A model generated the notes under the pieces. The model made no database searches. It had not been told where the DNA came from and saw only the letters and a program-made list of their open reading frames with translations. From the IMG/VR virus record IMGVR_UViG_3300037608_000261, positions 17,920 through 81,919 of that record: a stretch of 64,000 bases of DNA; one strand, 5' to 3'. This DNA is from a virus (Duplodnaviria; Caudoviricetes). Positions 797 to 32,373 of this stretch are shown piece by piece. The position numbers and the translations under genes are program-made. Numbering within the stretch: the first letter of the stretch is position 1; each line of letters opens with the position of its first letter.

Positions 797-3700
797 TTAT
801 GCAATTAATTCATAGATTACCTTCAAGTCAGTCGATGAAGGCATGTGCCACCAGGCTCCTTTGAACGCTTCCCCCGCATCCGAAAAGAACTGAGCCCCAT
901 AACGCGCTTTCAGAATGTCTTTTGTCCTGAAAAGCACACCGCTTTTTCCATTTCTGTCCTGGAAAAACCACTTCGCAAAGGGTTCCAAAACGGTCCCCCT
1001 GCGCCCTTTAAACCCTGGCAAAGCCATGCTTGTAATGTTGGTTTTGACCGTAATGCCGATTTTGGCAAACGCTTCTATTACTTCCTGCGGGACCTCCTTA
1101 TAGCGGGGATCACTCTTCAGCGCTTCCTGAGCGGCCCGCTCTTTATCGGCTTTCTTGGCTGTCACCGCCGATTCCAATTCGGCCACTACCCCGTCAACAT
1201 ATTGATGGGCGATCTGTCTGATTTGCTCGGCATTATCTCCCAATTCTATTGTACCAGCCCCTATTACGTCAGGAAGTCGGTATTTCAGGTTTGTCATAGT
1301 GGTAGAACCGTCTAAAACAGATCCAACAATGGCGTCAAAACCTCCCTTCTCTTCCAGGAAAGTAGCCCATCTTTTGGCACAATATTCACGTACTTCGACC
1401 TCTGTTGCTGTTTTCCCATAGCCAAGAGCAACTTCGTTGTAGTTGTTGCCGAACAATAGCCCCATTATGCCCGAAATATAGTAGCCCGACCCACCTTCAC
1501 GCTTTACCGCAAGGTAGGCTTCACATACTGCCTTGCGAAACCCCTCGTTGTTTGGTTCGGGGTAGACGATAGCTGCCGCAAGGCCCTCAGTAGAATACCC
1601 GTCAGCAATGTTTATTGCTCCGTCCTGATTGCGAACGACATATATGGAGTGCTGATCCCAATTGATCTCTTGGCGGTGATCGAGAAACGTCTCCTTATCA
1701 ATCCTGCCATCAATGAGCGAATTATAGTCATGCGGTTCCGACAATGCCTTTTTAAGGTTCAGCTCTTTCTCGGAATAGGAGACCTTTTTCAACCCTTTGG
1801 CTTCCAGTTTAGCCAGACTGCCAGCTAAGTACCACCCCCAATTACCCGGAACGCGCCCCAAGTCCATTGACCCGATCCGACCCGTGATATCTTCATACTT
1901 GAAGGCCCGGTGCACCGGATCAACCTCTGAAATCTTTATGATTCCATGTTCGTAATCACTCTTATATTCATAGCAATCACCAACAGCAACTACTTTGCCG
2001 GCCAGGGTCACACAGGCGCTTTCGGGTTTGTCTATCAGGGTTTCATCAAAGGGAAGTTGCCCTTTCTTTGCCTTTTGTTTAAGAAGACCAGCAGTCTGCT
2101 TCACTGTCGATGTCAGCCTGGTCCGTCTCTCATCAAATGTCTGATCCAGTGTTCCAAGCTTTACCGTAAAATTCTTCAGGGTTTGCTGCTTTTCAACAAT
2201 TTGGCTGCCCAATCTCATTCGATCATTCCCTTCGGCAGCCGACCACCTTTCCTGAAGCCTTTTGATTTCTGCCTCAAGATCAGGAATTCTCTTAGTCAGA
2301 CGCTCGCGCTCTGCCTGCCTTGCCACATCAAGGCCAGCAAGGTCCATAGTTGCCTGCGAAAGTATCTGTAACTGGTTTGCAAGTCGCCTTTGTTCTTTTT
2401 CGGCCTCTTCTGCCTGCTTCGCCGCCAGTCTATCCAACCGTCTCTTTTTGGCTGCCTCGGGATCTGCTTCAAGCATATCCATCATCTCATCTTGGCTTAA
2501 GGCATTTGCGTTTTCTGCCGTCGCGTCGGTACCGCCAAAGAGGTCGCTCATCCAATTTGATTTTGCTTTAAGTATCTCAAGACGGTATGCATCGAAAGAC
2601 CCTTTCCCGCAATAGTAGTAGATGTGAATCATGGGGGCAGTGTTGCCCTGTCTGACCCCGCGCCCGTTTCTCTGTTGGATACTCGCAGGCGTCCACGGAA
2701 GGGTTAAATGGTGAATGGCGGTAGTGCCTTTCTGAAGATTGACCCCGACTTCCGCCTTTTTGTTACAGATCACAAATTTCAGGCCCCCTGAATTATACTG
2801 GTCAGAAATTTTTTGCAGGTCCTCCCCCTGAGCTTCCTCAGCGTTAATAATACCGATCAATTTGGCAATGGTAGGAATATGGTGCACAATTAGTCGCAAA
2901 ATCTTTTGGTGCTGTGATTTCTCTTCCGTAAAGATCAGTTGCTTTCCGTCCGCCTCAAGGTCCGACCGTAGGTTTTCAATTAGACGTGCATATTTTGGCA
3001 TGAGGGGGTGTGAAACATTTTCCATGGCAATGTTATTTTGTGGGATTCGATCCACAACCAGGTTCTCGTATTCTTTTGGGAAGACCACAACATAGCTTCC
3101 GTTTTCCGTTCGTGAAGTAATTCTAAGCTCTACAGTGACTTCCCGAGATTTACCCTTGTTCATTTCAGGATCAAGTCCGAGTGCATCCATTTCCTCGTCA
3201 TCGAGGACACGCTTAACCTTGATAGATTGGGGAAGACTTTTTACCAGATCATCTACATTGGGCTTGTCCCCTTCCCGGAACACAAATGTCATTGTCTTAT
3301 TATAGAGGTCCATGTCCGTCGTGACCCTATCCATGTCTCGGATAACGGAAAACATGCTTTCCTTCTTTTCCCCTCGACCCGGTGGTTTTGCAGCATCCTT
3401 TGCCCGGTCGCGCAAGATTGCATAGACCCGTTGCTGTTCCTCGGTGAGTTCGATATTAAGACTTGTCTCCTCATGGGGAGGCAGCTTGATCTGATCGGGA
3501 AAGTCCTCTGCACTTTTCATATTTACATATTTGTGGAACATGCTGCGCAACCCATCAAGATTTTGAAATCCCGTCAGCCCATCTTTAGACTTTATGCCAC
3601 CATCAACCATCATTTTATCTACGCTCGTGATTTGCCCGAATACGCGGATGAAGTCGTCTGGGGTATATATGCCGTAGCGTTCAAATTCTTCTAAAGGGCA

Positions 3701-6700
3701 GGTATAGGAAAGCATGTTGAATATCTCGAATGGGCTGTTCGTAACCGGGGTAGCGGAAAGCATGTAGGCCCCTCGACCATTGTTAGCATCGCGCAGATAG
3801 GCCATCTTCATGGTCATATCGAGGGCGCGTTTTGCGGGCGGGGCCGTGGGAAGATAGGCCACATCCTGGTAGTGCTCCCCAGCAAGGAGATTATTTTTGA
3901 ATTCGTGGGATTCATCAATTATGATATCGGTGAACCCCATATCCTCGAAGTAGGGAAGTTCTCCCTTTTTCGCAGTTCCCTCATCGGAGAATTGCTGTTC
4001 AAGTCTTGTTTTCGCCACATCCTCATCGTAAGAAATCTTCTTCCCTGTTGACTTGTCATCGCCTTGAGCGTTGCCACCCGTCGCCTCTGCGTGCATTTTC
4101 TCGCTGATGAGCGACCTTTTGACCATCTTATCGGCATACGTCTTCTTGCTGTCCGGTCTCATAGGAATCATGCCGAATTTGTCTTTTGTCATAACAACAA
4201 GAGAATGATTTGACTGGGGGATTTTCCACATGGCTTCCCATACATCCTCTTTGCTGTTTCTCTCTACAAGAACATCCTGGTATTCAAGCTGTCCAGTAAA
4301 TGCGTTTGTCTTTGGGTTTCCCCTCTCGTCCTTGACGACTTCATGTTCGACTTGCCCATCCTTGCTTGTTTTTGGTTCAAAACCGATGAAGAGCGCATCG
4401 TTGAGATTACCCAGGAACTTCTTTGACTCATGATACCAGTTCCCCAGCACTGATTTAGGAACCACAATACAAGTTTTCTTGGAGCGGCCCATCTTTTTGT
4501 TATATGCATAGAGTCCGAGGGCTGAGTAGGTTTTCCCGAGCCCAACATTATGGGCCAGTATCCCCCGACCCTCTTCGGATAACCGCCTGACAGCCGCATT
4601 CTGATAACCGTGCAGCTTCACCTGTGGCGAAACTCCCTCCAGATGCAAATTACTATCTTCATAGTCAAAGGGCGTGAACCCATTGAATTTTCGGTTATAT
4701 TGTTCAGCAATTTCACTTATTTCAATATGCTGTTGCATCCATGCGTTGAACTGTTCTTCGAGAATTCGACAACGGTCTTTATACTCTTTGATTCTTTCTT
4801 GTGCATCTTCTCCGGATGATGTGACATTACCGCCGTTGAGATAGGAGAGAAACTGCTTCGGGAAACCGCCCTTACTGTCAATTCCCACAAATTCGCCAAA
4901 CGGATTATCATAGTCCTCTTTAAACTGCGTAGTGGTGAACGTCTTGCCGGAATAAGGGTCTTCTTTTTCTACCTTTTCCATTGCCCCGTAATTTACATTC
5001 GGGTACCCATTTTCTCTGAGAAATTCAACCACATATTTTCTATTGAACCACTTCTGACGCATACTGAATACAATATTGTCAGGCTCCGTTGTTATGCGCT
5101 TGCGCATGATCTCGGAGATTTGCTTCATATACTTGTCTTTAATCTGTTCATCCTTTTCCGCAGCCAGTGCATCGCCCATAGCCTGAATCTTCGGATAGAT
5201 ATCTCCTACGGTATAGCGCCCCATCGGGACAACGAAACCATCCGGGGTAATTGCCAGCGCGCCGTCATCGGCAAGGTCGGACAGTGACTTTATTTCACGT
5301 TTCCCTGTGTAAAGCTTTTGGATATCCTCCAGCTCTATTTCCCTAATTCCTTCCCGAACAAAGAGGTGTTCGACAATAGCTTGAAGATTTGTCGAATCAT
5401 ACTCCAAGGTCCGTCCCGATCCGCCCATGGTTCCGGCAAGCAGGTCGGAAAACTGGCCATTTTCATCAACAGCATTCTTGAAAAGGCCAAACATCTTTGA
5501 AGTTTCCCCGGTTATCAACAGCCCCTTGTTATTTTTAGGGTGCCCATAAGTATCGATCTCCTTGGAAACAAGCTCCTGCAGTTCAAGCCGATCCACATCT
5601 TCGGCAGTTCCGTCGTTGACAGAGTTCTGATAGCGTGCAATCATGCCGCCAATGATTGAGCCCCGGAATAGCTGTTCTTGGTATTCTTCCTTGGGCTGGC
5701 TCATGGCAAATTCGATGGAGGCCTTCTGTAGTGGGGTCAAGTATTCCGGGAAAGCTTTAAAGATGGCAAAGAGCTGCTTTGCGGAAAGAACCAGGGCTCC
5801 CTTTGGCGATGACAGGACTGCCTTCAGTTCGGCCAGGCTTGCCGCACCGTAGCGATCCTTGTCAATGGCCATGGATGTATCATCTGTCTTGACTACACGG
5901 GACCACCGTCCATTTGTCAGCTCATGCTCTGTGCCATTAATGATCTTCCGGTCGCCCTCTATATAATTCCTGGCTATGGGTTCCGATGCCTCAAGGAGGT
6001 CCCAGTTTATACGGGAGTCAAACTTTTGAGCCAGACGCACTTTCAGACCCGCATTGTCAATATCCCCGTCCACAACTTCCCGACTCCATCGATCACCCTC
6101 GACTTTCGGGACCCACTTGCCCATGATGAATTGGTGTCCTTCGCCAAGCCAGTATTGGCCGCTAACGAATTCATCCCAAACGACCTTTGCGGCCTTCATA
6201 ATATCGAAGGGAACGGTGTCTATTTTCTCCAAGAACTCTTTCGGATGCTTTCTAAAGACAACGATGTCCACAACAGTGTCGGTTCCCTGGGCCGAGAACG
6301 TCTTAGACGGTAGCTTGTGTGCCCCAAGAAATTCAGCTTTTTTGTTGACTGCTATTCTGAATTTTTCCCATTGCCCTCCCTTGGCACCCACGATGTTAGT
6401 GGGGACGACCAAGCAGCAGAGGCCACCAGGCCGAACCTTGTCTAAGGCTCTGAGAATAAAATAACGTTCAATCCGCTTTTCATCCTTGTAGTCTGGATCA
6501 TCATAAGCACTTGCACCTCGTGCATTGCCGAACGGGACATTGCCAACCACGGCATCAAAGGTGTTGTCTGGGGTTTCCATGACAACCTTTTCGAAGGATT
6601 GAGTTTTGATCAGATCATCCGGGTTGAGAAGCTGTGCCACTTTTGAACCTACAGGATCAATATCCGCCCCGGTGATGATCGTCCCTTTTGGCTTCGTTGC

Positions 6701-7135
6701 CGAGAAGACACCGGCGCCCGTGCAGGGGTCAAGAACGTTCCCATTCTCAAATCCGTTTGCCATCATACCATCCCACAGCCCTTCGGCCACATGAGTAGGC
6801 GTGTAATATTCAAACTGGGAATTCTCGGTAAGGCCACCGCGCCCTGAATATTGTTTCAGTATCTCCCGGTCCTCGTCCTTCAAAGCTCCAGAGTCCTTCA
6901 CGCGGTCGATAATCTCGCGGGCCTGTTCATTTAGCCTCTCGCGGGCTTTAATGCCCTTGACTTTTAGACCATAATCCGAGCTTTCATTTTTGTAATTGCT
7001 CGGGTCTTTTGGCGACTCTTGACCAGGTATTTGCTTCAAGTCAAAAAGGGTTTGAATAACTACTGCTATTTCAAAGAAATTGCCTGCTGCTTGAACCTTA
7101 GATTTCCAATCGGGTAAAGCACGTTCAAGAATCAT
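797..7135 (-). CDS. darB: DarB-like N6-adenine methyltransferase / SNF2-type helicase fusion (defence against restriction)
   Basis: 2112 aa; MTase motifs VLDPCTGAG and VGNVPFG; helicase motifs AHNVGLGKT, IIIDESHE, QRNGRGVRQGN; sits in a dar cluster. Confidence 0.9.
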   Translation of the reverse strand: MILERALPDWKSKVQAAGNFFEIAVVIQTLFDLKQIPGQESPKDPSNYKNESSDYGLKVKGIKARERLNEQAREIIDRVKDSGALKDEDREILKQYSGRGGLTENSQFEYYTPTHVAEGLWDGMMANGFENGNVLDPCTGAGVFSATKPKGTIITGADIDPVGSKVAQLLNPDDLIKTQSFEKVVMETPDNTFDAVVGNVPFGNARGASAYDDPDYKDEKRIERYFILRALDKVRPGGLCCLVVPTNIVGAKGGQWEKFRIAVNKKAEFLGAHKLPSKTFSAQGTDTVVDIVVFRKHPKEFLEKIDTVPFDIMKAAKVVWDEFVSGQYWLGEGHQFIMGKWVPKVEGDRWSREVVDGDIDNAGLKVRLAQKFDSRINWDLLEASEPIARNYIEGDRKIINGTEHELTNGRWSRVVKTDDTSMAIDKDRYGAASLAELKAVLSSPKGALVLSAKQLFAIFKAFPEYLTPLQKASIEFAMSQPKEEYQEQLFRGSIIGGMIARYQNSVNDGTAEDVDRLELQELVSKEIDTYGHPKNNKGLLITGETSKMFGLFKNAVDENGQFSDLLAGTMGGSGRTLEYDSTNLQAIVEHLFVREGIREIELEDIQKLYTGKREIKSLSDLADDGALAITPDGFVVPMGRYTVGDIYPKIQAMGDALAAEKDEQIKDKYMKQISEIMRKRITTEPDNIVFSMRQKWFNRKYVVEFLRENGYPNVNYGAMEKVEKEDPYSGKTFTTTQFKEDYDNPFGEFVGIDSKGGFPKQFLSYLNGGNVTSSGEDAQERIKEYKDRCRILEEQFNAWMQQHIEISEIAEQYNRKFNGFTPFDYEDSNLHLEGVSPQVKLHGYQNAAVRRLSEEGRGILAHNVGLGKTYSALGLYAYNKKMGRSKKTCIVVPKSVLGNWYHESKKFLGNLNDALFIGFEPKTSKDGQVEHEVVKDERGNPKTNAFTGQLEYQDVLVERNSKEDVWEAMWKIPQSNHSLVVMTKDKFGMIPMRPDSKKTYADKMVKRSLISEKMHAEATGGNAQGDDKSTGKKISYDEDVAKTRLEQQFSDEGTAKKGELPYFEDMGFTDIIIDESHEFKNNLLAGEHYQDVAYLPTAPPAKRALDMTMKMAYLRDANNGRGAYMLSATPVTNSPFEIFNMLSYTCPLEEFERYGIYTPDDFIRVFGQITSVDKMMVDGGIKSKDGLTGFQNLDGLRSMFHKYVNMKSAEDFPDQIKLPPHEETSLNIELTEEQQRVYAILRDRAKDAAKPPGRGEKKESMFSVIRDMDRVTTDMDLYNKTMTFVFREGDKPNVDDLVKSLPQSIKVKRVLDDEEMDALGLDPEMNKGKSREVTVELRITSRTENGSYVVVFPKEYENLVVDRIPQNNIAMENVSHPLMPKYARLIENLRSDLEADGKQLIFTEEKSQHQKILRLIVHHIPTIAKLIGIINAEEAQGEDLQKISDQYNSGGLKFVICNKKAEVGVNLQKGTTAIHHLTLPWTPASIQQRNGRGVRQGNTAPMIHIYYYCGKGSFDAYRLEILKAKSNWMSDLFGGTDATAENANALSQDEMMDMLEADPEAAKKRRLDRLAAKQAEEAEKEQRRLANQLQILSQATMDLAGLDVARQAERERLTKRIPDLEAEIKRLQERWSAAEGNDRMRLGSQIVEKQQTLKNFTVKLGTLDQTFDERRTRLTSTVKQTAGLLKQKAKKGQLPFDETLIDKPESACVTLAGKVVAVGDCYEYKSDYEHGIIKISEVDPVHRAFKYEDITGRIGSMDLGRVPGNWGWYLAGSLAKLEAKGLKKVSYSEKELNLKKALSEPHDYNSLIDGRIDKETFLDHRQEINWDQHSIYVVRNQDGAINIADGYSTEGLAAAIVYPEPNNEGFRKAVCEAYLAVKREGGSGYYISGIMGLLFGNNYNEVALGYGKTATEVEVREYCAKRWATFLEEKGGFDAIVGSVLDGSTTMTNLKYRLPDVIGAGTIELGDNAEQIRQIAHQYVDGVVAELESAVTAKKADKERAAQEALKSDPRYKEVPQEVIEAFAKIGITVKTNITSMALPGFKGRRGTVLEPFAKWFFQDRNGKSGVLFRTKDILKARYGAQFFSDAGEAFKGAWWHMPSSTDLKVIYELIA

Positions 7136-10100
7136 TATGCGCGTCCCTCCTGCAAAGATGTTTTGATGAGTTTCAATAACTTATCCATATTTCTCTGGTC
7201 ACTGAGCATATTCAACGGATCTTGTTTTAGAGTCCGTCTAATGTTCGGAATGATACTCCGATTGATTTCTTCCCGTAACGTGGAGAAATCAGATTGTTCA
7301 TATAATCCAATATGGGCGCTGTCTTTCATGATGCCGCTGATTTCCTGGAGATATCCAAGAATTTTTTTTATGTTCTTCCCGTAAGTCTTCCCCTTGCTTT
7401 CTTCCATAGCCAGAATGCTTTTGTATTTCTGATGATAGTCATCAATAAAAGCATCCAGTCTTGCGGTATCGTAAGAAGGGGTAACACTTCGGCGCTTTTC
7501 GATGATCAGATTGTTTAGGAAACTTCTTATCTTGTCTGCCGTGGGATTCTCTTCACGTAAGTAACGATCCCCTTGGGTCAAATAGCTGTCGGCTTCCGAG
7601 GTGATTTCCATGATTTGTTTCCGGGTAGAGGCTTCATTCAGTGCCTTTAGGTAGTTCCGGTATGCTTCAGCCCTTGGGTATGCTTGCCCTTGCGCCCTCT
7701 CTTCAGCAACCAGGACATTTATAAGGCTGGGAATGTCTTTATCGTTCCTCTTTTTATCTGATAGAATGTCTTGGTATTCATTTATGACTTCGGCGGGGAT
7801 ATCTTTCCCTGCCTTAATTGCGTCCTGAATATCTGTAAAATGCACCGCATAGGCTTGGGCTTCCGAGACAATTTCGGGATTACGTTTCCAGAATTCAGCG
7901 ATTGTCATCTCCCACGACTTTTTGGAATTATTTATTACCATCGGGAATATCTTTTCAAATACTGAGAATATCTCATCGAACGATACCGACACGCTAACGG
8001 CCCTTCTCCAATCAAATTCACCAGTATCCTCAAAAAGGTTCTTTCCGCCATCCTGGACGTGGTCGCGAGGCTTAAGACCCTCGGTCATCTTTCCCAAATA
8101 TGCTCTCCATGCAACGATTGATTTATCCTTGTTTTCGATTGCGGTTGCCCTTCGGTTCCTGCCATCAATAATGTCCCCGTCCGGTCCTATTAGGATTGGT
8201 TTAGAATGGTCAGCATCTGGATCATTGACAGGGTTAAGCGTTTTAGGATCGATTATTTCCAATTGCCAGTAATCGCCTGCCGCTGACCAGTGTTTTTTCT
8301 CGGCATCTGATACCTTTCCGAAGGTATCCCGATACTTGTTTATTTTGAGTACATTCTTATAGAAATCCTGCCATGCAAATGTATTTGCGGACTCTAAAAT
8401 GCCTTTGGCAACTTCTGTCGCTGCATCTATATCTTCATTTTGGGCTGACTCAAGAATAGTATTACTCGCGGACTTCATGATGTCGCCTTCGCGTAGCCAC
8501 TTTTTGAAGGCCTCCATGGAAAGCTCTGTAATTGCTCCTATCCTGTACACACCCTTACCATCTGAAAACCCTTTACAGTAAACTTCACGAGCATCTTCGC
8601 TGTCGTTACAACCAATAATCCCTTTGCATTCATCGAACTTCCCGGTATCTACATCAAGTTGATCGACAATAAACACCCGTTCGCTGTCTGTGTTTTCCCC
8701 TATATACACATCAAAATTGTCACCATCGGGGGCTTTTGTCTTTTTCACATATCCATAATGCGCAGGCATAGTAACGGACCACTTCTTTCCATTAGGGTCT
8801 ATCCCGGATCGCTCGGACCCCTTCGGGTTCTCAATGGCGATAGCCAGGCCACTAATAGTTACATGACCCTTACGGTAATTTCCCGCTTCTTTTTGGGCCT
8901 CTGTGGGCTCAGAAAGGTTATTCTTGGGAGAGGATGCCGCTTTGTGGGCTTCCTTGTCAATTGCAGATGACTCAAGAATCTCCTTGACAGCATTCATATC
9001 TGCGCCTATACTTTCTTTATAGTGAGTGTAATGCTCTCTATAAGAAGGTTCTGAGGCCGGGGCTAAATTCTCTGGAACAGAACTTTCTAAAGGTCCCGAC
9101 CTCCGGGCTTCTACCCCGGACAAACTTGGGGCCTTTCTTTTTTCGTAAAGCACATCAGGATCATGATTTAGATTGTAAAACAAGTGCCCCCTGTCATCTT
9201 CTCCGACTGTAACGCCTACAAGAATAATTTCATTTTCCATCTCAACTTTACCGTCAAAAAAATGAAACCTTTTGATATTGTCATGACGGGTTTTAAACGG
9301 ATCAGAAACGCAATGTTTCCCATATTGAATGATAACGGGTGCAACAGGAAGTAGTTTGGCTTTTTTAATGTCCGTTTTTATACCGCGTCTAAACTTTTCC
9401 CACCCTTTACCGGAAAACCTTATCTCCCCAACACCTTCCCTGGTTACTGTTTTGCCCTGTAGTTTTGCCCTATAATAGGCTCTGGCTGTCTTAACGGAAT
9501 TCTCCGAATCAATGTCATCACCTAATTCTTTACCGGTAAGCGTCATCAAGACACCACCTGCCGATTCAAATAACCTCGTCCCTTCTCTTGCGGTTTTTTC
9601 TTTTTCTATAGCCAGCGTTACAATTTGGGTCGGTGTCGGTAAAGGCTCCCCTGCATCTATAAGTTTGGGTGCTTTCTCATATTCAAGACGGGTTTTTAAT
9701 AATCTGCCTGCTTCTTTAAAAACCGCTCCCATGCGCTTTGCGGACCGGATACTATCATTGATAAACCTGGCGATATGCTTCGTATCCTCCGATACATTAT
9801 CAAAGAAACCGCCCTGATTGAGCACCATTTCAAGAGATTCCCCGTCTCCCTTTGATCTTTTAACCAGTTTTGCGGCCTCGATAATGCAGCCGGGTATGTT
9901 TATCCCCATAAGGTCCGATGATAAAGCCTTTGCCTGTGAGAATTCACCTGCTGCAACAGTCATGGCTGACAGGATGTTCTTTATTTTCGGGTCCATTTCC
10001 TCAGCCATAAGGGCAAGTAAATTATCATCCTGATATGCTTTCTGGAATATGGCAGCCTGTACACGGTCGATAAGCTGTTTTGTGTATCCTCCATCTTTTG

Positions 10101-11463
10101 TCATGTAGCCGGTTGCTGCAACTCCGCCCATGTTCTCGACGAATCTTGCCAGGAACGCACGGTTTGATGTAGCCGTTATATCTCCGTCTTCAGAAGGTTG
10201 AAAAAGGGCAAGGTCTTTGTCGGTAAGTTTTGCTGCATCCGCCCTGGCAAGTTCAGAAGGCGCCATTTGGGCAATCTCGTCTTCGTTGGCCTTTCTTGTA
10301 AACTCTGCCCGGTCTATTTCAGTAATGCGGATTCTTACCAGCACGGGTTTATCCATACCTTCGATAATCTTTCCGGAAATACCAAAATTACCTGAATTAT
10401 CAATTATCCACTGCTTGTATTCCTGCCCTTTTGTACCTGAATTATATGCTTTGCGTATTGCTATAGTCCTGCCGTTGCCAGACTCAACAGTGAGGTCCTG
10501 GCCGATAACAGGAGCTCCCGTTGAAACGCTTGTAGATTCTCCAAGACGTTCCGGATTTAACTTTCCAGCCATTTGCTCAACCTGTAATTTCATACCTTCC
10601 CTGGTACGGTCCCTGGGCTGAAGGTCCTGTGAAAAACCCTCATTGAGAGACATATCATCATCATGGGAAGTAATCAGGCGGTCGATCTCTACCACGGCAT
10701 ATTGAAGATCAATAGGGGTATTGTCATTAAGGTAGGAGGTTGCCTTTTCGCCTTTGGTGATGCCTGTTTCATTTTCGTCGTCAAGCTCTGCGGATTTCTC
10801 ACGCATACTCTTGATCTTACTTTCAAGCTCTGAAATCTCTCTGGAAATGAATTTCTTTACTACAATGGGCCCGAACATTGCCGCAAATACGTTCTCTATG
10901 TCGTCGAAAGAATGAGCGGCTTTAACTGCTTGATTATAGTCGGTGACTGGCTGGACACGCTCGAAAATGGGCTTGATAGAATTGGAAAGCGGGTCTATAC
11001 TCTCTTTGTAGAGAGCGTCATGCTCTCTGTCAAAAGGCTCCAAACCCCGGGCTTCTAACCTGGGTAAAATTGGGGCCTTTCTTTTTTCCATAAGTACATC
11101 CGGATCAGAAAACAGGTCTACATATCCTTCAGGCGGGATAAATCCTAATACCTCAAAATCACGGATGCTGTTTTGTTTTCCGTCTTCAAGATAAATCTTG
11201 CTAAGGGTAAGAACATGGTATATGTCTTCAGGAAAGGTTTGATCGCTTTCTTCCAGATCGAATTTATAGCCTCTCATTCCGAATCCGAATTCACGAAAAT
11301 ACTCTTTTAAAACTTTCTCCGGCATTTTAAGGCCATAATTATTGATCTGAAATTTTGCCGGGCAGTCAAACTCTGTCGGTTCTATTCTAAGCCCTATTTC
11401 TCCTGCAAGGGTCATAATGTTAAAAGTATAAGGAGTTACCGGATATTGAATGTTTTCAATCAT
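7135..11463 (-). CDS. Polyvalent DdrB-like internal virion protein (ddrB-type ParB, LPD3-like, inorganic-pyrophosphatase-like and second ParB-like domains)
   Basis: 1442 aa; QPRDR...GAPVIG...VESGNGRT (ddrB-ParB); EPTEAQKEAGNYRKGH...IENPKGSERSG...HYGY...DGDNFDV (InPase of polyvalent proteins); PILIGPDGDIIDGRNR (ParB/Srx). Confidence 0.8.
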   Translation of the reverse strand: MIENIQYPVTPYTFNIMTLAGEIGLRIEPTEFDCPAKFQINNYGLKMPEKVLKEYFREFGFGMRGYKFDLEESDQTFPEDIYHVLTLSKIYLEDGKQNSIRDFEVLGFIPPEGYVDLFSDPDVLMEKRKAPILPRLEARGLEPFDREHDALYKESIDPLSNSIKPIFERVQPVTDYNQAVKAAHSFDDIENVFAAMFGPIVVKKFISREISELESKIKSMREKSAELDDENETGITKGEKATSYLNDNTPIDLQYAVVEIDRLITSHDDDMSLNEGFSQDLQPRDRTREGMKLQVEQMAGKLNPERLGESTSVSTGAPVIGQDLTVESGNGRTIAIRKAYNSGTKGQEYKQWIIDNSGNFGISGKIIEGMDKPVLVRIRITEIDRAEFTRKANEDEIAQMAPSELARADAAKLTDKDLALFQPSEDGDITATSNRAFLARFVENMGGVAATGYMTKDGGYTKQLIDRVQAAIFQKAYQDDNLLALMAEEMDPKIKNILSAMTVAAGEFSQAKALSSDLMGINIPGCIIEAAKLVKRSKGDGESLEMVLNQGGFFDNVSEDTKHIARFINDSIRSAKRMGAVFKEAGRLLKTRLEYEKAPKLIDAGEPLPTPTQIVTLAIEKEKTAREGTRLFESAGGVLMTLTGKELGDDIDSENSVKTARAYYRAKLQGKTVTREGVGEIRFSGKGWEKFRRGIKTDIKKAKLLPVAPVIIQYGKHCVSDPFKTRHDNIKRFHFFDGKVEMENEIILVGVTVGEDDRGHLFYNLNHDPDVLYEKRKAPSLSGVEARRSGPLESSVPENLAPASEPSYREHYTHYKESIGADMNAVKEILESSAIDKEAHKAASSPKNNLSEPTEAQKEAGNYRKGHVTISGLAIAIENPKGSERSGIDPNGKKWSVTMPAHYGYVKKTKAPDGDNFDVYIGENTDSERVFIVDQLDVDTGKFDECKGIIGCNDSEDAREVYCKGFSDGKGVYRIGAITELSMEAFKKWLREGDIMKSASNTILESAQNEDIDAATEVAKGILESANTFAWQDFYKNVLKINKYRDTFGKVSDAEKKHWSAAGDYWQLEIIDPKTLNPVNDPDADHSKPILIGPDGDIIDGRNRRATAIENKDKSIVAWRAYLGKMTEGLKPRDHVQDGGKNLFEDTGEFDWRRAVSVSVSFDEIFSVFEKIFPMVINNSKKSWEMTIAEFWKRNPEIVSEAQAYAVHFTDIQDAIKAGKDIPAEVINEYQDILSDKKRNDKDIPSLINVLVAEERAQGQAYPRAEAYRNYLKALNEASTRKQIMEITSEADSYLTQGDRYLREENPTADKIRSFLNNLIIEKRRSVTPSYDTARLDAFIDDYHQKYKSILAMEESKGKTYGKNIKKILGYLQEISGIMKDSAHIGLYEQSDFSTLREEINRSIIPNIRRTLKQDPLNMLSDQRNMDKLLKLIKTSLQEGRA

Positions 11464-13586
11464 TTCAAGTCCTCAATAAATGTTGGGAGTTCTTCAATGT
11501 CTTGTAATTCAGGAGGCACTAACTTCTGTTTTACGCTGAGCTCCAGCTTGTAACCAATTGTTGATGCTGTTTTCGGATCAACAATGATTCCTTTTTGAAC
11601 GTAAAGGAGATAAAGGAATACAAAATTTCTTGCGTCCTGCCTGTTGCTAAAATACATACCGTGGGTTGCCATACCAGGTCCTTTAGGATCACCGGGGTAA
11701 TAATAATAAATTACTGTTGTTCCTTTGCTTTTGCCTCTGGACGCACCATAACCGTCTATGCTGACAATCAGCCCGTCGCCTTTACCTTTCCAGAATTCAT
11801 CATCTTTGGCTTTTTTTGCTAAGGACGCATAGAATTTATCAATAATTTCCTGCCTGCTTGTCTCGTTTAATGCAGCTTGCTGCACGATTCCCTTTTTGGC
11901 AATTTCTCTGGCTGTCGGCTTTGATCTCATGAAGCCAACCATCAGACTGAACATCTGCGGATCGCGCTTTGCAAGAAAGATTGTGTCTTCCGGAGAGGAA
12001 AACATCTGTAACCCCATGGAAAGCACTTCGGTAGAGGCTTGGCGATAAACTTTACCAACATAAGGATCAAAGAAATCATCTGTATAGGCAACTTCATCTG
12101 ATCTAAAACCAGGGTTCCCGGTAATGCTCTTCAAGCTCTTGAGCCCTTTCTCCTTTTTTGCTCTTGTATCCCGAAACGTTTCGCCCATGACTTCCAGTTT
12201 CATCTCTGCTTCCAGCAAGTGCGCCATTTCATGAAACAAAATCTTTTTTGTAAAGCGGCTGTCAACGTAGATTAACCCGCGAGAATGAATGGCATTTGCC
12301 CTTTTGTCTCCCTTTGAATCAAAAAACGCCTTGCCGATCCTGCCGCCTGTTAACCGGTAAAATTCTGCCATGTCCTTTCTGATTGCGTTTTCATCATATC
12401 CTTGCTTTTTTAGACGGGCTTTCGCTGTTTTACTTATCGCCTGGCTTTTTACCCACTGATCGGCTTCTTCTTCTGTCACGGGGGATACTTCAAGGATTTT
12501 AGCGACAACGACTTTCCCTGCCTGATCGGTAATCTCTTTTTTTCTGGCTTCCAGGCCCTTGATCTCTCCTTCCATATACTTGGTTTCAAGATCGGCCATT
12601 TTCTCACGGTATTTCTGTCCTATAGGCTCTATGAATGCATTCTGGAGGTCGCTTACTTTAGAAGAAATTTTGTCATATTCCTCGGCGTATCGTTTCAAAT
12701 ACTCATTTTGTTCTGTTGACCATTTGGGCCATCCTCCAGCACCGCTATCGCGTTGAGCTTTTTGATTGTTGTACACCCAGTCGTTGCGTTCTTTGTTCAT
12801 GTCATATAATTTCTTTGTCAGGACGTCCAGCCCACACGCTTTTCTTGCCGCTTCCTTATCCACTGCTAACTGATTAATCGTCTCCTCTAATTCCTCATTA
12901 TATTGCTGATGCAGGACATCTATTTTCTTTTGAAGTTCATCAATCTGATTCACATTTTCGTAAAAACTTGGCATAGCCTCATTGAGCAGTTTTTCTCCGT
13001 CTTTGCAATTCCTGTCAAAAAGATATTTGCCAACTAATGCAGGGGATTGAAGTTCTATTATGGCAGCATCTTTCATTGCTTTCCCTGCCATGTTCTTGAA
13101 GCCAGGGTTGTAACGGCATTCTCTGGCTATGCCTTCAATCTCACGGGCAATTTCGTATTTTATTTCAATGTCCGTTTCTGCCCGAAAGACATCATGAAGA
13201 GCCATAGCTTTCTTCGCAGCATCGTACTCTTTTTCCCATGAATCAGGATTAATACTGTAAGGAAAAAGACGAACGAATATGTTCAGAATGTCATCAAAGT
13301 TAAGAGCGTTTTGGACAAGACGAGGGTAATTGTCTTTTGCCGTAACAAAAACCACTTTAACTGGTGGGGTGTTGTCTGCACCTTCAAGTACTTTATCCTC
13401 TTCTTTGACGCCCATGGACTTTTTGAAAACGCCTACTACGTATTTCCTATAGGCTTCTCCGTCATCTGCCTCAGAAATACCGGCCTGTTCCTCGGTAATC
13501 TTCTTGGCTTTCTCCCATCGGTTTTCAGCTTCAGAAATACTGATGTTCTTTTCTTCTGCAAGAGTTCTTACAAGCGCCGCAGGCAT
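11460..13586 (-). CDS. Polyvalent protein with coiled coil and zincin metallopeptidase (HEXXH) domain
   Basis: 708 aa; ILFHEMAHLLE followed by YVGKVY...TEVLSMG; overlaps the next gene (ATGA coupling). Confidence 0.7.
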   Translation of the reverse strand: MPAALVRTLAEEKNISISEAENRWEKAKKITEEQAGISEADDGEAYRKYVVGVFKKSMGVKEEDKVLEGADNTPPVKVVFVTAKDNYPRLVQNALNFDDILNIFVRLFPYSINPDSWEKEYDAAKKAMALHDVFRAETDIEIKYEIAREIEGIARECRYNPGFKNMAGKAMKDAAIIELQSPALVGKYLFDRNCKDGEKLLNEAMPSFYENVNQIDELQKKIDVLHQQYNEELEETINQLAVDKEAARKACGLDVLTKKLYDMNKERNDWVYNNQKAQRDSGAGGWPKWSTEQNEYLKRYAEEYDKISSKVSDLQNAFIEPIGQKYREKMADLETKYMEGEIKGLEARKKEITDQAGKVVVAKILEVSPVTEEEADQWVKSQAISKTAKARLKKQGYDENAIRKDMAEFYRLTGGRIGKAFFDSKGDKRANAIHSRGLIYVDSRFTKKILFHEMAHLLEAEMKLEVMGETFRDTRAKKEKGLKSLKSITGNPGFRSDEVAYTDDFFDPYVGKVYRQASTEVLSMGLQMFSSPEDTIFLAKRDPQMFSLMVGFMRSKPTAREIAKKGIVQQAALNETSRQEIIDKFYASLAKKAKDDEFWKGKGDGLIVSIDGYGASRGKSKGTTVIYYYYPGDPKGPGMATHGMYFSNRQDARNFVFLYLLYVQKGIIVDPKTASTIGYKLELSVKQKLVPPELQDIEELPTFIEDLK

Positions 13587-13599
13587 AACCCAGTTCCCC

Positions 13600-14697
13600 T
13601 TAATTCACGTAACTGTTTGTTCTGGTCCAGAGTTTCCCGAACACTTCGCTGAGCGCGCTTTCCATGATTGCTTCAATCTTGTCCTGGTTGGTTTCAATGT
13701 ACGTGATTGTAGGTGGCTTTACGGGTTCGATATCGTTAATTTCCTCTACAATATCCTTCAGGACCTTCAAAAATACTTCGGGTGGTTCGTTGTTGTATTT
13801 GCCTGCAATAAGGTCGGTAAGTTTCTGATTCTGGTGTGGCCCTCCCTGACCATTTATGTAATTGGAATATGCTTTCACGGCATCGTAGGGTTCCGGAAAG
13901 TATTCAGTAACCCCTGCGCCTTTCTGATACATTACCCGGTAACCTTCACCTTGGCTGTATGATAGGAGAGCATCTCCACCGATACCGCCATGAAGAGTAA
14001 AGGCAATGCTGTCGCTTCGATCCTCAAGGACTTCTCCGCCGTGATCGATTACGGCGTTTTTCATCTTACGGATATCAGGATCGCCTTTTGGGTATTCGTC
14101 CTCTGTACCTGTCTTTTCGCCCACGCCTTTAACCTGTCCAAGTGTCTTGGTTCTCCAATATAAGTCAAGTTCAACATTAAGCCGTATCAGTTCTTCGATA
14201 TTGATATACCCCAGTTCTGCATTCTGTTTGTCATTGTTCAGGATCGCGTAACCAAATGCCTGAAGCTGCTCTTCTTCCGAATCCTTTTCTGTAATGTACC
14301 AGTCTGACCCGCCTTTGAAATAATGAAGATATACAACCGCGTCGTCGCCTTTGCCATCCTGCCCGTAAACCTTCGGCATGTCGTTAATAGCCTTGGCAAT
14401 TTCCACAAATTTGTCTTTAAAGGATTGACCTTCTTCACCCCTGGTCCCATTACCCATTGCGGATAATTGAGACGGTCCTATAAAATGCTTTACCAGAGGC
14501 ATGACATTATTAACGTCAGCTATCGTTGCAGGCTGCGGTTCAACTATGTCCAGCTTTTCCTTCAACTTTGCGAAAGCGTCCTGTATTTCCTTCTGAAGCG
14601 TTCTCTTCTCAGCAAAGGGGAGAGTACCAGCCTGAAGGTTAGCCAGATTCATTGTAATTACTTTTTGTAGACCTCGTTTTTCAGAGAATGAAAGCAT
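13600..14697 (-). CDS. Dar-cluster protein: DUF2958-like domain plus DarA C-terminal-like domain
   Basis: 365 aa; LHYFKGGSDWYITEKD...AFGY...ELGYINIEEL...VELDLYW; C-terminal LTDLIAGKY matches LNDILAGKY in DarA; N-terminal duplicated EKRxLQK. Confidence 0.65.
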   Translation of the reverse strand: MLSFSEKRGLQKVITMNLANLQAGTLPFAEKRTLQKEIQDAFAKLKEKLDIVEPQPATIADVNNVMPLVKHFIGPSQLSAMGNGTRGEEGQSFKDKFVEIAKAINDMPKVYGQDGKGDDAVVYLHYFKGGSDWYITEKDSEEEQLQAFGYAILNNDKQNAELGYINIEELIRLNVELDLYWRTKTLGQVKGVGEKTGTEDEYPKGDPDIRKMKNAVIDHGGEVLEDRSDSIAFTLHGGIGGDALLSYSQGEGYRVMYQKGAGVTEYFPEPYDAVKAYSNYINGQGGPHQNQKLTDLIAGKYNNEPPEVFLKVLKDIVEEINDIEPVKPPTITYIETNQDKIEAIMESALSEVFGKLWTRTNSYVN

Positions 14698-14698
14698 G

Positions 14699-16408
14699 TT
14701 ATGCAGCCTCCTTTTTCAAGAGTTCTGTTAAGTGATCCGCTGCGCTATTTAATAGAGAGTCGAATTCCTGAGCTTTCCCTTCTGCTTCCAGATCGGCAGC
14801 AGCCTTATCAAGGGCATCTCCCAACTTACCGGAATCTCCATCATATTTACCGGCAAGAATGTCGTTAAGGACGCTAACGGCTGGGGATTCGGTTGTATCG
14901 GTAGGTCCCTTAGTTGTATCCTGAGCGCCGCCTGCCAGTTTCAGCGACCCGTCAGCAAGGTATCCCTGAAGTTTGTCGTAGCTGATGCTGATACTGCTGT
15001 TATCGCTCTCAAATGTGATTGCGGGGAGATTTGAACCGCCAGCCTCCGCGCCGTCAAGCCTACGAACGGAAAACCCACTCATGTAATCATCCGCCTCAAA
15101 CGCTGGCGACACAAAGGTTTTACGGCTGAGCATATACTGGTCACCAACCTTAAACTGGCTTACAACGGATTGATATTTCGCCGCCCACCCTGCCACGGTT
15201 TCCCTGTCCTTGATTGCAGCATCGAATGCCTTGATAGCTTTATCAAAGGCATTGTTGGCTGTGACAATTCCCTTTGCCTCAAATTTTTTATCGGCTGCAT
15301 AAACAACGACCTTGCCTGCTGGCGCTTCGTCAACCATTTCAACGTAATAGGTGACCGATATGGTTTCGACCGCAAGCTTCCCTTTATAAGTTCCAACCAT
15401 GTCGATCCTGAATTCGTTGTCGTTTGTTCCACTTCTTTCTGCGCCCCGCCCCACCAATTCTTGCTCAAACTCTGCCTTCTTTGCCTTAAATTCCGTCCTT
15501 TCCTGCTCTGCTTTCATCTCTGCCTCGGTCTTCGGAGTGTCCCCGCCTGTTGCTTTTCCGTCATTACCTGCCTGCTTTCCTTTCAGTGCATCTATTTTAT
15601 TCTGTAAATCATCATTAAAGGCTTTCTGTTTCTCTATCCGTTCCTTCAGGTTGATAACTTTAGCATCTGCGGCTTCGACGGAATCCTGCTTTTCCTTCAG
15701 TGCAGCAACAAGCTCATCATGCTGTTTTACTACCGTATCAGCTTGTGCCTTCAGGTCCCCAAGTTGCTTTTTCTGTTCAAGAAGTTCTTTCTGCATAACC
15801 TGAAAGCGAACACTGTTTTTTTCCACCAGTTGTGCCGTTCTCTTGCCAATTTCCTGGAGGCTTATCTCAGCGTCATTTTCAGGAGACACGACATGGGTTA
15901 TATCTCTCTTATTCAAGAGCCAACGGAAAGCAATAATTTCATCATCTGCCGTGATCTTCATTTTGTTGTTATCCGGACTATGGAAAATTACGCTCACCAC
16001 CTGACCATCGCTAAATGGAATCTGGACAGTGACGGAAGCAAATAGACCTGTTTTCTTTGGTGTTCCGATTACCGGACTCATGGCTTCGATGTTCTTGTCT
16101 TTCAAATAACCGTTGAACACGCGCACAAGGGCGGCCATTTTAGTATCCGTCCGTGCAAACTTCTGAATCGTAATGGCTTCAAGAATCAGGAGCTCTTCGG
16201 TCTTCAGCCTGTCGTTTTCGTCATAAAAGTCCCCAGGGTTATAGACATCATTCACTTCATCCATGGTGGCAGTTTCGAATAGAAAACGTTCCTGCCTTTT
16301 ATCGGCAGTCAGCTTGTAATATGCTTCAGATAACTGAATGCCGGTAAAGCCTGTAGCAAAATAGTCATATCCTGTTTTAATCCTCTTACCTTCTGTCAGT
16401 GGATTCAT
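14699..16408 (-). CDS. darA: DarA-like head protein
   Basis: 569 aa; IPFSDGQVVSVIFHSPD...FRWLLNKRDITHVVSPE (DarA N-domain), coiled coil, DarA C-like tail; follows hdf as in P1. Confidence 0.85.
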   Translation of the reverse strand: MNPLTEGKRIKTGYDYFATGFTGIQLSEAYYKLTADKRQERFLFETATMDEVNDVYNPGDFYDENDRLKTEELLILEAITIQKFARTDTKMAALVRVFNGYLKDKNIEAMSPVIGTPKKTGLFASVTVQIPFSDGQVVSVIFHSPDNNKMKITADDEIIAFRWLLNKRDITHVVSPENDAEISLQEIGKRTAQLVEKNSVRFQVMQKELLEQKKQLGDLKAQADTVVKQHDELVAALKEKQDSVEAADAKVINLKERIEKQKAFNDDLQNKIDALKGKQAGNDGKATGGDTPKTEAEMKAEQERTEFKAKKAEFEQELVGRGAERSGTNDNEFRIDMVGTYKGKLAVETISVTYYVEMVDEAPAGKVVVYAADKKFEAKGIVTANNAFDKAIKAFDAAIKDRETVAGWAAKYQSVVSQFKVGDQYMLSRKTFVSPAFEADDYMSGFSVRRLDGAEAGGSNLPAITFESDNSSISISYDKLQGYLADGSLKLAGGAQDTTKGPTDTTESPAVSVLNDILAGKYDGDSGKLGDALDKAAADLEAEGKAQEFDSLLNSAADHLTELLKKEAA

Positions 16409-17016
16409 GCCGCCACCTCCTTTAACTGGTCGTATTCTGTCTGTAGAGATTCTCCCACGGCAACCAGATTGCTTAATTCGGTTTCAAGAGCAGCTACAGT
16501 ATTGCTTTTCTCTGTACCGGCGGTTTCAATCTCTGTTATCTGTGCGGTGATCTCTGCGTTGGCTGTATTTGTGTCATCAACGGTAGTCTGCATCTGTGAA
16601 ATATGCTCAGCCACCGTTGTGTTGACAGCTTTTATCTTAGGTATAACGACCTTTTGGCGCGCAAGAGCCTTCTCCTTCATTTTCTGATAATGAGGTTCGT
16701 TCGCCTTAACATAATCAACAACTTCCTGAATCGCCTTGTCGAGGTCGTCAACGTTCTTGATGGCCAAGACTTTGTTGTTCAGCTTGACCTGGAAAATTGA
16801 GCCACCCGCTTTTGCTTTCACGAGAAGTTTCTGTCCGCTCTCGAAGTTAATGATTGCGGATTTTACCTGGAATCCAGATTCACGCTTTGCCTTATTATCG
16901 GCCTCCACGTCAGCAACCGGCAAACCCGTTTTCTCGAACTTTTCCAGAATAGGCTTTAGCCCCACCTTGTTGAATTTGTCAAAATCGATATGAATCATCC
17001 TTAGCCTCCCTTTCAA
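16405..17016 (-). CDS. hdf: Hdf-like protein (DarA N-domain homologue); likely start MIHIDF at 16998
   Basis: 203 aa; KAKRESGFQVK...FESGQKL...GSIFQVKLNNK plus coiled coil; directly upstream of darA. Confidence 0.8.
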   Translation of the reverse strand: MKGRLRMIHIDFDKFNKVGLKPILEKFEKTGLPVADVEADNKAKRESGFQVKSAIINFESGQKLLVKAKAGGSIFQVKLNNKVLAIKNVDDLDKAIQEVVDYVKANEPHYQKMKEKALARQKVVIPKIKAVNTTVAEHISQMQTTVDDTNTANAEITAQITEIETAGTEKSNTVAALETELSNLVAVGESLQTEYDQLKEVAA

Positions 17017-30747: not shown

Positions 30748-32373
30748 TTATTCCTCTGTGTCAGTAATGGCCAACTCCATGAAATACTCTCGGCCATCAA
30801 ACGGATTCAGGTCGCGGTAGGCCAACTCCCACAGTGTGTTCTCATATTTTAAATCGCTCTGCATGGCGTGTTTGAATGCCATTGCAGGGATAGCGTCACC
30901 GGCAATGTAACCGGCCTCACCTATGTTTTTCCCTTTCGCGTAGCAGAGACTGCTGTAGTCGGTAGACCGCTGCGGATCCTCGTAAAGGTCCCACATGCCG
31001 AAAAGACGACCGACATAGTGCGGCTGAGGAATCCTTACATACCCCGGAGCAGGTGAGAAATTAGGCTCCTTCATACTCTTAAACAGGACCGCAGTCTTGG
31101 AATCAGCTACAAGGCCAATGAGTCCGGATGTCCCGGTCTGAGACATAAGTATTGCGTCTATTTCCAGGAGAGTCTGCTTTACACTTTCGTAATGTTCCTG
31201 GAAATATGTGCTGGCCGGTACATGCATGTTCCAGGACTTCTGTCCCTTCATATAGAAATACATATCGGCAAGGTGCTTGCGATCTTTGTCGGCACTCAGC
31301 AAGTTCCTCATAGCGAGCATAGCCATGCTGTCGGCATTCAAGTTAAATTCTCTGCGCAACCCCCACAAAGACTGGAGTGTAGTGCTTGCTTCAATAGCCG
31401 ATTCGTGCGGATAAATAGTCCTTGAATCCATCTCGTGATTTACTGCCGGTATTAGAGTCGGGTCTTTTTCGATATCGATATCAATCCCGACATGTACCTC
31501 AATTCCGGTAGCTGGCGCTGTTGAAAAAACGGGGTGAACAATACCGCTGGCATAGTTGACCGTACCGGTTACGGTAATCGTGGTACCGCCGACAACAAAA
31601 CTCCCCGACAATACAGCGGCCCCATCATCCTTTGCCACAACGTTGCGGTCATGGATAATCTTGATGGATTTTTTCTTGAAAGGCCGAATGCCGCCCCATT
31701 TTGTGTTAGAGTTCAAATCAAACTCATTTGATGATCCTGTTTTGGTTCCGTTGCCGGTACCCGTAAGAAATCGCTGATCCATCGTTCCATACTGACCGGC
31801 GAAATCATGGGTGATCTTGTCGTTTATGGTGAGGTCACCAAATGTACTGGCAGCTACTCGCCAAATCTTGAATATCTCGCTCTGATTGAAAGTTCCGGGA
31901 ATATATGACACAATGTTCCCGGTAACGGACAGGAGCATGACAGGCAGAATAAGCGCCACCATGCGGTCCCTCATGAGAATCCCCTCTGTCGTCGAAATAT
32001 TGGCTGCCTCAAGAAGCATACCGCCCACTTCATGTCTTCCATTTCCGACAGTTGCAGTAATTGCATTTTCAATAGCCTGATGAGCACTGGCAAGCATCTC
32101 CTCGGAGGGCATATGACCTCTCTGGTTACAATACTGCCTCAATGCGTTTGACCATGTAGCCTGAATTGTAGCGGCCCCTTTGCCAAGACCTTCAAAAATG
32201 CTTCCCTTGGTTGCGATCTCCAGCCGGTCTGCCCTTGTTCTACGATCACCAATAAACATCCCGGTTGCCTCATCAATCACTGGAACCAACAAAACATCCC
32301 GAAGATGGTTTGCCTTGTCCGTGATCGATTTTACTCTTTCATGGTATTCTTTCATCGTATCCTTTACCTCCAT
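30748..32373 (-). CDS. Major capsid protein (P1 gp23-like); probable start MKEYH at 32355
   Basis: 541 aa; MLASAHQAIEN, LILPVMLL, LIPAVNHEM, GYIAGDAIPA parallel P1 gp23 as recalled. Confidence 0.92.
   Translation of the reverse strand: MEVKDTMKEYHERVKSITDKANHLRDVLLVPVIDEATGMFIGDRRTRADRLEIATKGSIFEGLGKGAATIQATWSNALRQYCNQRGHMPSEEMLASAHQAIENAITATVGNGRHEVGGMLLEAANISTTEGILMRDRMVALILPVMLLSVTGNIVSYIPGTFNQSEIFKIWRVAASTFGDLTINDKITHDFAGQYGTMDQRFLTGTGNGTKTGSSNEFDLNSNTKWGGIRPFKKKSIKIIHDRNVVAKDDGAAVLSGSFVVGGTTITVTGTVNYASGIVHPVFSTAPATGIEVHVGIDIDIEKDPTLIPAVNHEMDSRTIYPHESAIEASTTLQSLWGLRREFNLNADSMAMLAMRNLLSADKDRKHLADMYFYMKGQKSWNMHVPASTYFQEHYESVKQTLLEIDAILMSQTGTSGLIGLVADSKTAVLFKSMKEPNFSPAPGYVRIPQPHYVGRLFGMWDLYEDPQRSTDYSSLCYAKGKNIGEAGYIAGDAIPAMAFKHAMQSDLKYENTLWELAYRDLNPFDGREYFMELAITDTEE

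Follow-up and report, generated by a model that had tools for sequence, protein, structure and literature searches.

A recurrent two-helix tag in the late Dar-type cargo proteins of a P1-like phage: a candidate capsid-targeting leader associated with prohead protease-type sites

By which signal are the defence against restriction (Dar) proteins of P1-like phages brought into the prohead? It has been proven that the N-terminal 30 residues of P1 DarB are a capsid-targeting signal (PMC9024508), as the first-pass annotation of the DNA studied here had stated for the DarB N-terminus, and Gonzales et al. (2022) considered that a common signal among the P1 Dar proteins was to be expected, but none was found by BLAST (PMC9024508). 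The question is raised anew by a stretch of 64,000 nucleotides from IMG/VR virus record IMGVR_UViG_3300037608_000261 (positions 17,920 to 81,919 of that record; referred to as the window, from whose first nucleotide coordinates are counted unless the genome is named), in which a 24-residue motif, here called the tag, is found four times in three adjacent genes of a dar operon. The window belongs to a phage genome assembled as a single contig of 81,919 bp, and its source is a distant P1-like myophage: the capsid protein and P1 gp23 are 30% identical in an alignment that covers 98% of the former, the identities to P1 are 32% for the head protease Pro and 34% for the portal protein, and the tail, baseplate and portal genes match P1/T4-type families. 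A search of the phage collection for near-identical DNA relatives found none. We propose, with moderate confidence, that in this lineage the late Dar cargo has the tag as its common leader for capsid targeting or retention, and that the tag is coupled to the processing of polyvalent precursors by Pro.

Four copies of one motif in three adjacent genes

The window contains a complete dar-type operon on the minus strand (797-17016), with the following genes.

797..7135, minus strand: DarB-like cargo gene, 2112 amino acids (aa), with N6 methylase and SNF2/helicase, 35-37% identical to P1 and D6 DarB
7135..11463, minus strand: DdrB-like polyvalent protein, 1442 aa, with ddrB-ParB (aa 247-379), LPD3 (aa 657-763) and InPase (aa 855-990)
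11460..13586, minus strand: cargo gene of 708 aa with an HExxH zincin domain, corresponding to the C-terminal metallopeptidase half of P1 DdrB
14699..16408, minus strand: DarA-like gene, 569 aa, without a tag, with an I-L-E↓A site at aa 75-77 (arrows mark mapped or predicted cuts)
16405..17016, minus strand: Hdf-like gene, 203 aa, without a tag; together with DarA a candidate partner or receptor of the tag

The operon also encodes a 365-aa protein with a DdrA-like end. Polyvalent proteins combine at least two disparate conflict-type domains in one late or virion protein, and this was found to be the case for the 1442-aa protein and the DarB-like protein, whose genes are located between the tail and head genes. 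The zincin residues H452, E453 and H456 of the 708-aa protein are invariant in its homologues; a search of viral contigs for loci with this protein as the sole query found none. The tags lie in the DarB-like, the DdrB-like and the zincin gene.

7040..7111, minus strand: tag copy 1, DarB-like protein aa 9-32, N-terminal leader, kept in the related loci L004, L011, L013 and L005 described below
10870..10941, minus strand: tag copy 2, 1442-aa protein aa 175-198, leader of the ddrB-ParB module
7942..8013, minus strand: tag copy 3, 1442-aa protein aa 1151-1174, leader of the C-terminal module
13260..13331, minus strand: tag copy 4, 708-aa protein aa 86-109

All four copies were present as the first-pass annotation had quoted them when the minus strand, on which the genes lie, was translated; the plus-strand reading of the same coordinates gave unrelated text and was discarded. 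The copies share 8-10 of 24 residues in ungapped pairwise comparison, and among the 66,920 24-mers of the six-frame translated genome only these four windows have at least 8 identities to one another. With a profile hidden Markov model (HMM) built from the four copies, the tags scored 42-45 bits and the next best match in the genome 4.7 bits. Leave-one-out HMMs recovered three of the copies as the best non-training match (independent E-values of 2e-4 to 4e-3). The DarB copy was weak in this assay alone (3.2 bits); it is backed by conservation, since the DarB N-termini of L004, L011 and L013 are near-identical to it and that of L005 is recognisably similar. A 752-aa pentapeptide-repeat protein by the portal gene (genome 5552-7810, minus strand, outside the window) has a stretch that might be a fifth copy, with only 5-7 of 24 identities; no HMM recovered it, and it was rejected.

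The leader has roughly 24-30 residues in two helices with a turn, and its consensus consists of a first helix, D-W-[RK]-x-A-I-x-x-A, and a second helix, [ST]-F-[DE]-[DE]-I-x-x-V-F-x-x-x-F-[PG]. For instance, in the AlphaFold model of the 708-aa protein (mean predicted local distance difference test score, pLDDT, 82.5) the tag forms a helix at residues 84-92, a turn, and a helix at residues 97-107. One leader is common to several otherwise unrelated cargo proteins, as in T4-type capsid targeting.

Conservation of the tag and its restriction to polyvalent cargo

Relatives with about 50-80% protein identity have the same set of copies, namely a prophage of a Syntrophorhabdaceae metagenome-assembled genome (MAG; L004) and the viral contigs L011/L012 and L013. 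Each of these carries one tag at the DarB N-terminus, behind the start M-I-L-E-R, and two or three in the DdrB-like polyprotein; those that have the zincin gene carry one more in its product. In a more distant Pseudomonadota MAG prophage (L005), tags are found at the N-termini of the zincin and DarB-like proteins. In the homologues P0007-P0010 of the 708-aa protein the tag follows a conserved N-terminal extension of about 85 residues and an I-S-E↓S/N site; in the orthologues P0011 and P0012, which have no such extension, it stands at the very N-terminus. The first 57 residues of the 708-aa protein itself (13416-13586, minus strand) form a conserved three-helix mini-domain in front of a disordered linker and the candidate cut site; this mini-domain is present in P0007-P0010 and absent from P0011 and P0012, and a peptide of about 7.5 kDa would be released if the site were used.

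A profile of 10 sequences (A3) was run on whole records and on 1.84 billion representative proteins. In an 82-kb viral contig that was outside the profile training (G003/L013), exactly four matches were obtained (E-values of 8e-15 to 2e-9), in three adjacent open reading frames (ORFs). Two bacterial MAGs (5.5 and 6.8 Mb) yielded significant matches solely in the prophage dar locus, and the next best match had an E-value of 0.02. Among the representative proteins there were 18 matches at E-values of up to 1e-3, many of them with two or three tags. The motif, which had been predicted to be confined to head cargo, was thus found to be real, conserved and portable: 15 of the 17 new matches carry polyvalent-protein domains (ddrB-ParB, LPD1, LPD3, InPase, ART-PolyVal, PBECR1/3 or MuF_C), with at least seven different domain types behind the tag, and the remaining two have no Pfam family, as P0010 likewise has no recorded Pfam domain. 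A refined HMM of 45 instances scores its members at 12 bits or more, with a clean gap to the noise. In all tag-bearing loci whose genomic context was read from the related-locus searches, which covers a minority of the 18 protein matches, Hdf and DarA were found with at least 40% identity to those of this phage.

The tag was absent from 30 other viral loci that have cargo domains in common with P0022 but no DarA/Hdf, and from the dar loci of P1, Rb1 and two Pseudomonadota prophages (L006 and L007). The motif HMMs had no matches in the dar regions of P1, Xanthomonas phage Rb1 and Acinetobacter phage ABMM1, and a tblastn search of 50,697 cultured-phage records with two segments that contain the tag returned only noise. 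Furthermore, no Pfam model (at E-values of up to 10) and no PDB sequence covers the tag. Because the same domains occur without the tag outside the lineage, the tag is lineage-specific and the effector domains are not. The DarB-like proteins of Rb1 (L002:17867-24583), L006 (10963-17760) and L007 (11059-18060), which have no tag, share a different N-terminal element (T-P-F/V-G-V ... F-P), which may be the leader of another lineage.

Candidate protease sites and a gp21-type protease

According to the first-pass annotation, an [ILV][LF]E site precedes every copy by 4-17 residues, and such sites are present (ILE, IFE, LFE and VLE). These sites and further sites of the same type in the cargo and capsid genes are as follows.

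7124..7132, minus strand: I-L-E, DarB-like protein aa 2-4, 4 residues before tag 1; the M-I-L-E-R start is kept in L004, L011 and L013
10960..10968, minus strand: I-F-E, 1442-aa protein aa 166-168, 6 residues before tag 2
8029..8037, minus strand: L-F-E, 1442-aa protein aa 1143-1145, 5 residues before tag 3
13383..13391, minus strand: V-L-E↓G, 708-aa protein aa 66-68, 17 residues before tag 4; replaced by I-S-E↓S/N in orthologues
9565..9573, minus strand: L-F-E↓S-A, 1442-aa protein aa 631-633, between the ParB and LPD3 modules, no tag after it
8971..8979, minus strand: I-L-E↓S-S, 1442-aa protein aa 829-831, between LPD3 and InPase
8392..8457, minus strand: two I-L-E↓S-A sites, 1442-aa protein aa 1003-1005 and 1022-1024, just after InPase
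32008..32016, minus strand: L-L-E↓A-A, major capsid protein aa 120-122, aligned with the P1 gp23 cut M-L-E120↓S121

From composition, [ILV][LF]E is expected at a frequency of 0.0019 per residue, which amounts to about 0.026 for a stretch of 14 residues. Of the seven strict sites in the 1442-aa protein, six lie at domain boundaries (aa 166, 631, 829, 1003, 1022 and 1143), and the seventh is inside tag 3. Many metagenomic proteins, as well as L004 and L013, repeat the L-F-E site and the G-E-F-D-W context of tag 3. The AlphaFold model of the 708-aa protein places the V-L-E68 site behind the three-helix N-domain, in a linker predicted to be disordered (pLDDT <50 at residues 64-83). P1 DdrB (L001:15543-18530) has a site, G-L-F-E441↓S (aa 439-441), right after its ParB region, which matches the site at aa 631-633 of the 1442-aa protein.

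The coupling between site and tag extends to the relatives. When internal tags were defined as those starting more than 30 residues into the ORF (n = 30), a hydrophobic-[LFMIV]-E tripeptide was found within 25 residues upstream of 22 of the 30, compared with 22% at random positions in the same proteins; many of these instances are homologous copies, so that the count overstates their independence. Five further internal tags have I-S-E or V-T-E upstream. The distance from the glutamate of the site to the start of the profile is mostly 4-8 residues, the tag stands downstream of the candidate site (by 4-17 residues), and no consistent site was found after the tag. Natively N-terminal tags start at residues 1-16, and the predicted cuts would place the internal tags 4-9 residues from a new N-terminus, like the natively terminal ones.

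The candidate sites associated with the tags are of the type at which P1 gp23 is cut, as judged by alignment with the mapped cut: mature P1 gp23 begins at S121, behind M-L-E120 (PMC9024508). P1 DarA (L001:18905-20824) has a single [ILVM][LF]E site in its 639 residues, L-L-E68↓A (aa 66-68), with which I-L-E77↓A of the DarA-like protein aligns. This site fits the report that residues 1-69 of P1 DarA are invisible by cryo-electron microscopy (PMC12810830). The N-fragment of P1 DarA would have a mass of 7.8 kDa, compared with about 9 kDa reported.

The gene for the Pro homologue adjoins the portal gene (genome 2473-3501, outside the window), and its product has no Pfam match. Its AlphaFold2 model (pLDDT 81) has the fold of the T4 gp21 protease: the best match was T4 gp21 (5jbl_B), with a Z of 10.6 and a root-mean-square deviation of 2.8 Å over 128 residues by VIA-align, followed by herpesvirus proteases with a Z of 5-7.5. 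Foldseek alone gave a probability of 0.91 and a weak E-value of 0.075 for this match, which VIA-align settled. H54 and S127 of Pro, candidates for the catalytic residues, are invariant in 37 homologues. In addition, the Pro homologues carry conserved sites of the I-L-E-S-A type of their own, and gp21 likewise holds cleavage-type sites within itself (PMC9026906). Some Pro homologues (P0042, P0048 and P0051) have about 530 residues with an extra N-terminal part. P0048 carries LPD3 (PF18798), and in some relatives the prohead protease is therefore fused directly with a polyvalent-protein domain.

Possible functions of the tag

We read the tag as a probable head-loading signal because its position in DarB matches that of the proven 30-residue packaging signal of P1, because it is confined to cargo proteins, because it is absent from Hdf and DarA, and because it co-occurs with one DarA/Hdf subclade. 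In BLASTP alignments the DarB-like protein from aa 33 onward aligns with P1 DarB from aa 18 onward, which puts the tag, just before the conserved DarB body, in a position equivalent to the P1 signal. It has been reported that in P1 Hdf and DarA enter the head first and are needed for the other Dar proteins (PMC12810830). Through the leader, the cargo would dock to the inner side of the prohead during assembly, with the DarA-Hdf layer or the scaffold region of the capsid protein as the probable docking site, and the leader would work whether terminal or internal. After encapsidation, the gp21-fold Pro may cut the precursors at the hydrophobic-[L/F]-E sites in the interdomain linkers, whereby the polyprotein would separate into effector modules, and the tagged modules would begin 4-9 residues before the tag, like DarB.

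This scheme differs from that of the first-pass annotation in two respects. It had been supposed that cleavage exposes the tag for loading; however, the prohead protease acts inside the assembled prohead, and therefore exposure of the tag by cleavage cannot precede loading. Either the tag acts while internal, or a free N-terminal tag matters later, in retention, ordered release or ejection. The supposition that each cargo module bears a tag did not hold either: of the fragments predicted for the 1442-aa protein, 1-168, 634-831 and 832-1005 have none, which also counts against a general loading role of the tag. Several other observations weigh against that role or against its coupling to processing, apart from the limited independence of the tag-site pairs given above. 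In P0025 and P0027 the tag is near the C-terminus of the predicted protein, although these may be truncated gene calls. The tripeptide V-F-E occurs inside many tags, and therefore the context of a site must matter. The refined HMM had no match above noise in the N-termini of P1 DarB, DdrB, DdrA and Ulx (its best match in the P1 locus, 4.9 bits, was in a non-gene frame), and the link to the P1 signal is one of position, with a weak alignment. A vague likeness by eye between the tag and the N-termini of P1 DdrB and DarB had no statistical support, and homology is not claimed. The T4 signal, a propeptide of 10 residues, precedes the cut and is removed (PMC9026906), whereas the tag is downstream and would be retained. 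Finally, Iyer et al. ascribe the processing of P1 DdrB to its own metallopeptidase domain and not to Pro (PMC5512222).

The predicted retention of the tag leaves room for other functions. The predicted cuts would keep it on the mature modules, and many unrelated effector domains are found behind it, which could mean that it is an interaction peptide that acts in the infected cell, by gathering the modules on the incoming DNA or by binding a common host factor. This appears unlikely: the tag is confined to one head/DarA-Hdf lineage while the same domains are untagged elsewhere, which a virion-side partner fits better, and its position is equivalent to that of the proven P1 DarB packaging signal (PMC9024508). 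It is improbable, too, that the tag serves processing only, as a hairpin exosite that steers Pro or the 708-aa zincin peptidase to the upstream linker, with no role in loading. The short, tight spacing between site and tag in most internal copies would suit such an exosite, as would the metallopeptidase-driven processing of P1 DdrB proposed by Iyer et al. (PMC5512222), but at least 10 tags stand at the extreme N-terminus without an upstream site and with nothing to cut (for instance, P0011, P0021, P0024, P0030 and P0034), and the strict sites at aa 631, 829, 1003 and 1022 of the 1442-aa protein, as well as the capsid, DarA and Pro sites, have no tag behind them. We give still less credence to a role as an ejection leader, in which loading would depend on other determinants and the free N-terminal tag would let a module thread the portal and tail at infection. 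This is the sole model in which exposure of the N-terminus matters, and the predicted cuts would indeed leave the tags 4-9 residues from a free end, as in the natively N-terminal copies; yet the LPD3, InPase and N-terminal fragments, which have no tag, would be left behind, an odd fate for effector domains. A chance likeness, or one due to the composition of amphipathic helices, for which the 3.2 bits of the DarB copy might be cited, is excluded by the four unique mutual matches in the genome, their conservation across relatives and the 18 specific matches in 1.84 billion proteins with a clean gap in the score distribution.

The proposed capsid-targeting leader resembles several known systems, each in part. 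As in P1, it is an N-terminal DarB segment of about 30 residues in a dar system with Hdf, DarA, a DdrB-like protein and DarB; unlike in P1, where no consensus among the Dar N-termini was found, one motif is found in three cargo proteins and is repeated within a polyprotein. The T4 internal proteins, which are anti-restriction proteins, share with it a short conserved leader on unrelated injected proteins, a modular cargo and a gp21-fold protease, gp21 cutting after hydrophobic-x-E (PMC9026906, PMC3012670), but in contrast to T4 the tag is reiterated inside multi-domain polyproteins. The tagged proteins have the domains of the polyvalent proteins (ddrB-ParB, LPD1/3, InPase, ART-PolyVal, PBECR, MuF_C and zincin peptidase), which are predicted to be packaged and injected, and the passages that a term search located in Iyer et al. 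(2017) make no mention of this leader or of protease-type sites at module boundaries (PMC5512222). In the giant phages SPN3US and phiKZ, many head-internal ejection proteins are likewise cut by a gp21-like protease at short x-E motifs; however, these belong to a different phage group with a different motif, and no retained common leader is noted in the abstracts of the reports on them (PMC7411985, PMC10052503).

Capsid-targeting leaders, processing of the gp21 type and polyvalent proteins are therefore already known. What seems to be new is a defined motif common to all late Dar-type cargo of one phage, its reiteration in polyproteins directly after protease-type sites, and its apparent retention on the predicted mature modules. 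In an open-access literature search, the tag was described neither in the passages located in Iyer et al., nor in Gonzales et al., nor in the 2026 paper on the DarA/Hdf structure. With the tag there is now a candidate, defined by sequence, for the common head-packaging signal sought in P1 without success. Its assets as a candidate are 45 instances with a clean profile, its presence in all late cargo of one phage, the many unrelated effector domains behind it, and its tie to protease-type sites at module boundaries. More tentatively, a clade of uncultivated P1-like phages may build its injected proteins from a cassette of two parts, in which the prohead-protease site comes first and an address tag of about 30 residues, which stays on the module and binds the DarA-Hdf layer, comes second. 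Any effector placed behind this cassette, singly or within a polyprotein, would be loaded, separated and delivered. Such a cassette could be the missing common packaging code of Dar systems, with a logic opposite to that of the removable signal of T4. The questions that this opens are how Dar and polyvalent cargo finds the prohead, whether polyvalent proteins are polyproteins cut by the head protease, and what the receptor inside the capsid is. The tag can serve as an annotation marker for head-packaged, injected proteins in metagenomic phages and, if the targeting role is true, as a compact handle for protein-packaging studies in P1-type heads.

Two further features of the locus were observed. 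Upstream of the dar operon (genome 12819-16099, outside the window) are a gene for a PLD-family nuclease and a gene with a Shedu SduA_C domain. In the 1442-aa protein, a linker element (D-P-D-V-L-x-E-K-R-K-A-P, then Y-K-E-S-I) is duplicated at aa ~115-160 and ~770-815, with one copy after the N-terminal module and the other after LPD3; the module order differs in the polyprotein of the L004 relative, and the modules therefore seem to have been shuffled along with their linkers.

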